Positions 34,740 through 35,040 of a stretch of 64,000 bases of DNA are shown piece by piece. The notes beneath the pieces are model-generated. The model had not been told where the DNA came from, did no database searches, and saw only the letters and a list, made by a program, of their open reading frames with translations. The stretch comes from Escherichia coli (GTDB taxonomy: Bacteria; Pseudomonadota; Gammaproteobacteria; Enterobacterales; Enterobacteriaceae), in the NCBI RefSeq assembly GCF_003018255.1, contig NZ_CP027440.1, one strand, 5' to 3'. Position 1 is the stretch's first letter. Each line of letters begins with the position of its first letter. Made by a program: the position numbers and the translations under genes.

Positions 34740-35040
34740 GAGAAGGTGGGGCTTATTGCCTGATGCGCTACGCTTATCAGGCCTACAAAACAAAGCACAG
34801 TTTGTTGAATTTGCACGTTCTTGTAGGCCGGATAAGGCGTTTACGCCGCATCCGGCGCTGCCCCTCTCCACATGGAGAAGATGGGCTAATTGCCTGATGC
34901 GCTACGCTTATCAGGCCTACAAAAACAAAGCACAATTTGTTGAATTTGCACGTTCTTGTAGGCCGGATAAGGCGTTTACGCCGCATCCGGCGCGGCCCCT
35001 CTCCACATGGAGAGGGTTTGGGTGAGGGAAAAGCCTCACC
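34740..35040. repeat. Tandem REP/BIME array (about 128-bp unit, roughly two copies) between mtlA and mtlD
   Basis: Repeated blocks ctctccacatggaga…gcctgatgcgctacgcttatcaggcctac…gtaggccggataaggcgtttacgccgcatccggc. Confidence 0.7.

Follow-up and report, generated by a model that had tools for sequence, protein, structure and literature searches.

A Tandemly Repeated Module of One BIME-1 and One Hairpin between mtlA and mtlD in Escherichia coli

Results and Discussion

A Tandem Array in the mtlA–mtlD Spacer

In the window analyzed here (the whole stretch of 64,000 nt of E. coli DNA), the coding sequences of mtlA and mtlD are separated by a spacer of 364 bp (34717–35080), which begins after the TAA stop codon of mtlA (34714–34716). 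The gene names used at this locus (mtlA, mtlD, and mtlR) come from the RefSeq annotation of strain DETEC-S792, which is 99.9% identical over the region. The features are listed below with the type of evidence in parentheses.

32803–34716, plus strand: mtlA coding sequence, PTS mannitol transporter IICBA (ORF list; RefSeq annotation of the 99.9%-identical strain)
34723–34750, plus strand: hairpin H′, CTCACCCTCTCC-ACAT-GGAGAAGGTGGG (fold of the K-12 allele; sequence)
34727–35013, no strand: tandem array, made of units 34727–34861 and 34862–34996 and a third copy of the hairpin core
34758–34786, plus strand: copy 1 short REP, GCCTGATGCGCTACGCTTATCAGGCCTAC, probably z1-type (sequence; nomenclature of PMC3333891)
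34787–34822, no strand: copy 1 L linker, 36 nt (sequence; linker alignment)
34823–34856, minus strand: copy 1 inverted REP, GTAGGCCGGATAAGGCGTTTACGCCGCATCCGGC, probably y-type (sequence)
34861–34885, plus strand: H2, hairpin of the internal junction (allele comparison)
34892–34920, plus strand: copy 2 short REP, GCCTGATGCGCTACGCTTATCAGGCCTAC, probably z1-type (sequence)
34921–34957, no strand: copy 2 L linker, 37 nt (sequence; linker alignment)
34958–34991, minus strand: copy 2 inverted REP, GTAGGCCGGATAAGGCGTTTACGCCGCATCCGGC, probably y-type (sequence)
34996–35051, plus strand: BoxC/TMECO-like element including hairpin H3 (sequence; genus comparison)
35052–35080, plus strand: mtlD leader, with a Shine-Dalgarno-like GAAGG at 35068–35072 (sequence; predicted folds)
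35081–36229, plus strand: mtlD coding sequence, mannitol-1-phosphate 5-dehydrogenase (ORF list; RefSeq annotation of the 99.9%-identical strain)

The presence of REP and BIME elements in intergenic DNA of E. coli and their copy-number polymorphism have long been known, and tandem BIME arrays whose copy number varies among strains were reportedly described by Bachellier et al. in Genetics in 1997. The tandemly duplicated REP/BIME block that the original prediction had placed between mtlA and mtlD is real: Tandem Repeats Finder returned, as its sole array, positions 34727–35013, with a period of 135, 2.1 copies, 96% matches, and a score of 530. The predicted number of about two copies holds, whereas the predicted unit length of about 128 bp does not, the period being 135; likewise, the range initially given for the block (34740–35040) covers the array itself, except that the array starts 13 bases earlier and that the last 27 bases are BoxC-like hairpins. 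A repeat search identified direct repeats of 92 and 42 nt in the spacer, with spacings of 135 and 134 nt, and the sequence CCCTCTCCACATGGAGA occurs three times at intervals of 135 nt (34727, 34862, and 34997). The pattern CCTCTCCNNNNGGAGAGG, when up to two mismatches are allowed, has three matches in the window versus 0.07 expected from shuffles. The two units, 34727–34861 and 34862–34996, differ by four substitutions and two single-base indels; each contains two REPs that are inverted and tail-to-tail, and the order of parts is hairpin (with the core CCCTCTCC-ACAT-GGAGA), short REP, L linker, and inverted REP. The unit of the array is a 135-bp composite module, formed by one BIME-1 and one short G+C-rich hairpin.

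Several mechanical ORFs run across the spacer (34628–34897, 34756–35025, 34783–35178, and others) and were rejected as coding solely because they overlap the REPs. The MG1655 record NC_000913.3, checked for a curated REP or RIP annotation at the locus, gives two coding sequences only.

REPs were located in the window by a loose tail signature, the strict REP consensus pattern having matched one site only. Those expected outside the spacer were found, namely a pair directly 3′ of aldB (16130/16156), a pair directly 3′ of the gene encoding a 1750-aa trimeric autotransporter adhesin (44268/44303), and one REP between trmL and cysE (48802). A further REP, absent from the original prediction, lies at 12316. 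The adhesin ORF (38968–44220, 1750 aa) corresponds in DETEC-S792 to a YadA-like gene of 4785 nt (~1594 aa), a difference in length that suggests polymorphism of the repetitive stalk. Between aldB and yiaY, the minus strand contains an ORF of 431 aa (17872–19164) with a weak match to the Fic domain (NCBIfam, E = 3.8e-10); the annotation of DETEC-S792, otherwise near-identical, has no gene at this position. According to the annotation of a related strain, an RHS core protein (24916–28950) and an Imm57-family immunity gene (~29787–30308) are located between yibF and yibH; this variable toxin/immunity island lies upstream of mtlA, at a distance of a few kb.

Class of the REP Pair

Judging from its parts, the REP pair of the array is a canonical member of the BIME-1 class, also named RIP or RIB. 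BIME-1 elements combine z1 and y REPs with a long conserved L linker that frequently contains an IHF site, and are found "as single copies" (Ton-Hoang et al. 2012; PMC3333891). At the array, two REPs of different types are inverted relative to each other, the CTAC at 34783–34786 and 34917–34920 facing the GTAG at 34823–34826 and 34958–34961, respectively. The GCCGGAT-type REP is probably of the y type because it is the one shared with the BIME-2-like units of B2 strains (see below), and the short REP is probably of the z1 type since its partner is the one shared with BIME-2-like arrays. The linker is a conserved L linker that reads AAAA(A)CAAAGCACA(G/A)TTTGTTGAATTTGCACGTTCTT in both copies (36–37 nt). 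A 45-nt query combining linker, CTAC, and GTAG matched a median of 7 and a maximum of 14 places per E. coli genome. The same layout of short REP, L linker, and inverted REP is present between fliC and fliA (O157:H7) and between livF and ugpB (SF-173), where the REPs are near-identical to those of the array, and the 3′ half of the linker (TTGAATTTGCAC...TCTT) is common to all. The array thus resembles BIME-1 elements in its inverted, different REPs, its long L linker, and its extragenic yet transcribed location, but it departs from those of PMC3333891 in being tandem, with two copies in the window and three in 10 genomes, and in having a non-REP hairpin within its unit.

Tandem REP pairs, intergenic location, and strain-variable copy number are also features of BIME-2 and atypical BIME arrays (PMC3333891). 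The linkers in the window, however, are long L linkers (36–37 nt) and not short S linkers, and the repeat boundaries fall in the flanking hairpin; the combination of z2 and y REPs, short S linker, and arrays that defines BIME-2 is not that of the window units, and units resembling BIME-2 were seen only in the B2-type allele. The inverted REP doublet of the units has the architecture of a REPIN, a type of element mobilized by a REP-associated tyrosine transposase (RAYT) that the same genome encodes.

Another candidate considered was naRNA4, a nucleoid-associated RNA derived from REP325. This family (Rfam RF02564) scored 39.8 bits at 34826–34887 and 39.1 bits at 34961–35017; membership was rejected, as both values are below the gathering score of 59.5 and come from shared REP sequence (the y-type REP and the hairpin that follows it).

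The IHF consensus WATCAANNNNTTR has a weak match, with one mismatch, in copy 2 (34933–34945, minus strand), for a background of 0.92 such sites/kb, so that the match by itself carries little weight; the IHF-like core of the copy 1 linker shows two mismatches owing to the G at 34800. The two L linkers differ within this core (G at 34800 in copy 1 vs. A at 34935 in copy 2), and a distance of one mismatch to the consensus is reached by the copy 2 linker only. The L linker may bind IHF at the DNA level.

Hairpins and the BoxC/TMECO-Like Element

Hairpin H′ begins 7 nt past the mtlA stop codon and forms a stem of ~12 pairs that includes one C/A mismatch. It represents the left direct repeat of the CCCTCTCCACATGGAGA core, and has the 17-nt core common to the right hairpin (H), from which it then diverges (GGAGAAGGTGGGG). 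H2, at the internal junction, has a 5′ flank like that of the right-hand hairpin (GGCGCTG-CCCC) and a 3′ flank from H′ (AGATGGGCT); its signature GGAGAAGATGGGCT is limited to alleles with at least two copies. Upstream of mtlD, positions 34996–35051 read CCCCTCTCC-ACAT-GGAGAGGG-TTT-GGGTGAGGG-AAAAG-CCTCACCC-CAG-CCCTCTC, in which H3 (CCCCTCTCC-ACAT-GGAGAGGG) is separated by TTT from a second hairpin (GGGTGAGG-GAAAAG-CCTCACCC), itself followed by CAG-CCCTCTC. The GAGAGGG of this element could pair with either an upstream or a downstream CCCTCTC.

Like the BoxC/PIT/TMECO intrastrand-triplex motifs, whose consensus is CCCTCNCCC-N3-6-GGGNGAGGG-N3-GGGNGAGGG (Holder et al. 2015; PMC4666352), the segment CCCTCTCC-ACAT-GGAGAGGG-TTT-GGGTGAGGG has a C-rich block and, after a loop, two G-rich blocks set apart by a 3-nt loop. 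Positions 34997–35028 (CCCTCTCCA..TGGAGAGGG-TTT-GGGTGAGGG) depart from the strict consensus at the outermost position of blocks 1 and 2, which mismatch so that the stem has 8 bp instead of 9, and agree with it otherwise. Moreover, Table 1 of PMC4666352, which lists 23 TMECOs of K-12, does not include the mtlA–mtlD site. On account of this absence and of the missing base pair in the first stem, we refer to the element as BoxC-like and not as a strict member. The element upstream of mtlD continues with a partial inverted copy, similar to the inverted TMECO pairs of PMC4666352. In the same study, sequence variability was found to be raised locally, and small deletions to occur, around TMECO motifs, which fits the polymorphism of the mtlA–mtlD spacer. 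The hairpin of the array is the first stem-loop of a degenerate BoxC/TMECO-like element located before mtlD; the ctctccacatggaga motif noticed in the original prediction is this hairpin, separate from the BIME and carrying the endpoints of the duplication.

The BoxC-like element occupies the same position in Escherichia, Citrobacter, and Salmonella. TMECOs are absent from Salmonella according to PMC4666352, whereas the BoxC-like element described here is present in two Salmonella subspecies as well as in Citrobacter. Over 84 nt (34996–35080) comprising the BoxC-like cluster and the mtlD leader, E. coli is 92–94% identical to Citrobacter and Salmonella arizonae/diarizonae, and in the same comparison identity reaches only 57–73% at third codon positions in the 300 nt of mtlA and mtlD that flank the spacer. 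The conservation of this segment upstream of mtlD is therefore real. In the alignment of the BoxC-like cluster, loops are variable and stems invariant; a search for covariation in the conserved tail found compensatory changes in none of the 25 predicted pairs, which neither supports nor refutes the structure. H′ was found in Escherichia species and not in the Citrobacter or Salmonella sampled.

Alleles of the Spacer and Their Frequency

We decomposed 14 E. coli spacer alleles in addition to that of the window. The spacer is hypervariable and comes in at least eight lengths, which include the following.

0 copies of the 135-bp unit, spacer of 94 bp: O157:H7
1 copy of the 135-bp unit, spacer of 229 bp: K-12
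2 copies of the 135-bp unit, spacer of 363–364 bp: window, RMDEC465, EC42405, 2020CK-00188, MFDS1022581
3 copies of the 135-bp unit, spacer of 498 bp: Z0117EC0005, E200086, R32_14_1F
B2-type with 1 BIME-2-like unit, 318–319 bp: strains 4/4, CU532-9
B2-type with 2 BIME-2-like units, 419 bp: Nissle 1917
B2-type with 3 BIME-2-like units, 520 bp: DS566

In the B2-type allele, H′ is degenerate, the BIME-1 linker lacks 14 nt that include the IHF-like core, and BIME-2-like units of ~100 bp follow; these have a 17-nt linker and their boundaries lie inside REP/linker sequence. The variation of copy number among strains that the original prediction had anticipated is thus observed, in the form of alleles with 0, 1, 2, and 3 copies and of a separate B2-type allele. 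A uniform copy number, which had been named as the outcome that would contradict it, is clearly not what the comparison of the spacer across strains revealed.

To obtain frequencies, we searched 5,426 complete E. coli genomes with queries specific to each junction by means of Megablast, which requires a 28-nt exact word and may therefore miss divergent junctions. The internal junction was detected in 18 of the 5,426 genomes (0.33%), once in 8 of them (two copies), twice in 10 (three copies), and more often in none, numbers that would be reduced by collapsed repeats in assemblies. The two-copy state is a rare allele. The 0-copy junction was present in 872 genomes (~16%), for example in O157:H7, O55:H7, and O103:H2, and the B2-type junction in 1,042, including the phylogroup-B2 strains Nissle 1917 and ST131. 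A single copy is expected in the remaining ~64% of genomes, in agreement with 37 of 60 evenly spaced rows of the match list.

The mtlA–mtlD spacer of Citrobacter koseri measures 286 bp and contains several REPs of its own type before the BoxC-like element, those of other Citrobacter measuring 128–139 bp. REP expansion at this locus therefore seems to have taken place independently in another genus.

Origin of the Duplication

The internal junction of multicopy alleles (...CATCCGGCGC(T/G)G-CCCC-TCTCCACATGGAGA-AGATGGGCTAATTGCC) combines the core with a 5′ flank that is that of the right hairpin H and a 3′ flank that is that of H′. The 0-copy allele (TCCAATCCTA-CCCTCTCC-TCAC-GGAGAGGGTTTGGGTGAGGG) shows the converse arrangement, with H′ sequence 5′ of the core and H sequence 3′ of it. 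The two sequences are reciprocal products, the exchange lying inside the hairpin core and outside the REPs, and because of this reciprocity we infer an unequal exchange or slippage between the flanking hairpin repeats. Homology at the exchange point is short (8–17 nt). Slippage or illegitimate exchange, aided by the hairpins, would account for such endpoints, as might another mechanism.

The common one-copy allele has its BIME-1 bracketed by direct copies of the hairpin core, H′ to its left and H to its right. In the scenario that we propose, the two-copy allele was generated when H′ and H underwent unequal exchange or replication slippage, and the reciprocal product would be the 0-copy allele of O157:H7 and other strains. 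Once two 135-bp copies are present, ordinary recombination could add or remove units, which may be how the three-copy strains arose. Escherichia albertii, E. whittamii, Escherichia sp. E1V33, and E. coli E69 all have H′, the BIME, and H; since these outgroups carry the three elements, the 0-copy state is derived, by secondary deletion. In Citrobacter species and in the two Salmonella enterica subspecies sampled (arizonae and diarizonae), the BoxC-like element is preceded by one REP, of a type proper to those genera, and H′ is therefore specific to Escherichia.

The restriction of GGAGAAGATGGGCT to multicopy alleles favors a single original duplication, after which units were gained and lost. 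The AGATGGGCT signature of the internal copy is no simple hybrid of H and H′, and this, together with the ~4% divergence between units, suggests that the duplication is old or took place between diverged alleles. The coding sequences flanking the spacer in the window show 5–8 differences per 610 nt with one-copy strains and 11–19 with other multicopy strains. Since the flanks are nearer to those of one-copy strains, recombination would have moved the allele or parts of it, which demands an additional recombination event.

Overall, our preferred reading is that a module of BIME-1 and hairpin was duplicated by exchange or slippage between hairpins, and that the extra copy is most likely near-neutral and without dedicated function. 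We give this reading a probability of about three in four. The near-neutrality of the extra copy is proposed because 16% of genomes lack the BIME and 0.33% have at least two copies.

Predicted RNA Structure and Possible Function

The RNA of the spacer is predicted to be very strongly folded, with a minimum free energy of −171 kcal/mol (z = −10) in the window (two copies), −112 kcal/mol (z = −8.4) in K-12 (one copy), and −40 kcal/mol (z = −4.4) in O157:H7 (0 copies). The one-copy allele is predicted to fold into a chain of separate hairpins, in the order H′, REP, linker, REP, H, and second BoxC-like hairpin. Within the mtlADR transcript, the spacer would accordingly form very stable hairpins, one after another. 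In the predicted centroid structures of the 0-, 1-, and 2-copy alleles, neither the Shine-Dalgarno sequence nor the start codon of mtlD is paired. A scan of 34400–35400 for terminator-like sites (hairpin followed by a T-run) found none on the plus strand and one match on the minus strand, at H′. We rejected a reading of the spacer as an intrinsic (Rho-independent) terminator because no hairpin with a T-run is present on the plus strand.

The malE–malF intercistronic REP is said to have been described as an mRNA stabilizer by Newbury et al. in Cell in 1987; the present locus resembles it, and this is a resemblance only, in that stable REP hairpins lie between two genes of one operon, 3′ of the more abundant transcript segment. 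REPs are reported to resist 3′-to-5′ exonucleases and to participate at times in Rho-dependent termination (PMC6061677). By analogy with other REPs, the hairpins of the spacer may block 3′-to-5′ exonucleases, which would favor the mtlA segment, and may also reduce read-through to mtlD and mtlR. By this analogy, an effect on the stability of the mRNA, as suggested in the original prediction, or on attenuation is plausible, and some stabilization of the mtlA segment combined with some attenuation before mtlD would be the most likely effect of the spacer. In the literature, including the supplements of PMC4666352 and PMC7815308, we found no data on REPs, transcript 3′ ends, proteins, or binding for the mtlA–mtlD spacer.

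From there, one may ask whether copy number is an adaptive setting, in which BIME-1 units, under selection, tune the MtlA:MtlD:MtlR ratio through mRNA stabilization, attenuation, or IHF. The rise of predicted RNA structure with copy number, the known behavior of REPs as exonuclease barriers and sometimes in Rho-dependent termination (PMC6061677), and the at least eight length alleles of the hypervariable mtlA–mtlD spacer would all agree with such tuning. However, alleles with at least two copies are very rare (0.33%), the BIME is missing altogether from 16% of genomes, among which are successful lineages, and the mtlD ribosome-binding site is unaltered by copy number in the predicted folds, so that we regard an adaptive setting as unlikely.

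A bolder version, which seems to us rather improbable, makes the BoxC-like cluster itself a functional cis-element, which would act as a signal either in RNA (for processing or stability) or in DNA structure, and has BIME-1 copies (0–3) set the MtlA:MtlD:MtlR ratio by lineage. The cluster has been at its position since the split of Escherichia, Citrobacter, and Salmonella, and its conservation exceeds that of the flanking coding sequences. If this version were true, duplication of the first BoxC-like hairpin would have made a variable-number repeat of 135 bp out of a BIME-1 that is normally single-copy.

Alternative Origins of the Array

A different route to the array would be amplification of the BIME by the TnpA-REP (RAYT) tyrosine transposase, through cleavage and strand transfer at REP/linker sites. 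Cleavage and recombination at inverted-REP and linker sites were obtained in vitro, and a model of BIME amplification was proposed for BIME-2 arrays (PMC3333891); at the very same locus, B2 strains have one to three tandem BIME-2-like units bounded within REP/linker sequence. The repeat unit of the window, on the other hand, includes a non-REP hairpin and has distinguishable endpoints in the hairpin core, the 0-copy reciprocal product drops the whole BIME exactly between two hairpin cores, and BIME-1 is described as single-copy in PMC3333891. We therefore consider it improbable that the transposase produced this array.

That the duplication is an artefact of the assembly of a repeat-rich region is very improbable: a 135-bp tandem repeat is near short-read length and its copy number is open to mis-assembly, yet 18 complete genomes, assembled independently and originating from several countries and hosts, share the junction, with two or three copies, and the two units are distinguishable at six differing positions.

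Significance of the mtlA–mtlD Array

The array is an ordinary repeat polymorphism, a rare allele at a locus whose hypervariability has known causes, namely the instability of BIME and BoxC elements. A BIME-1 that is usually single-copy would here have been amplified through flanking BoxC-like hairpin repeats and not through its REPs. The steps of 135 bp make the spacer a simple length marker for PCR. Finally, the locus offers a clean natural series of 0, 1, 2, and 3 BIME-1 copies, together with a BIME-2 series in B2 strains, which could be used to measure how operon expression responds to an intercistronic BIME.
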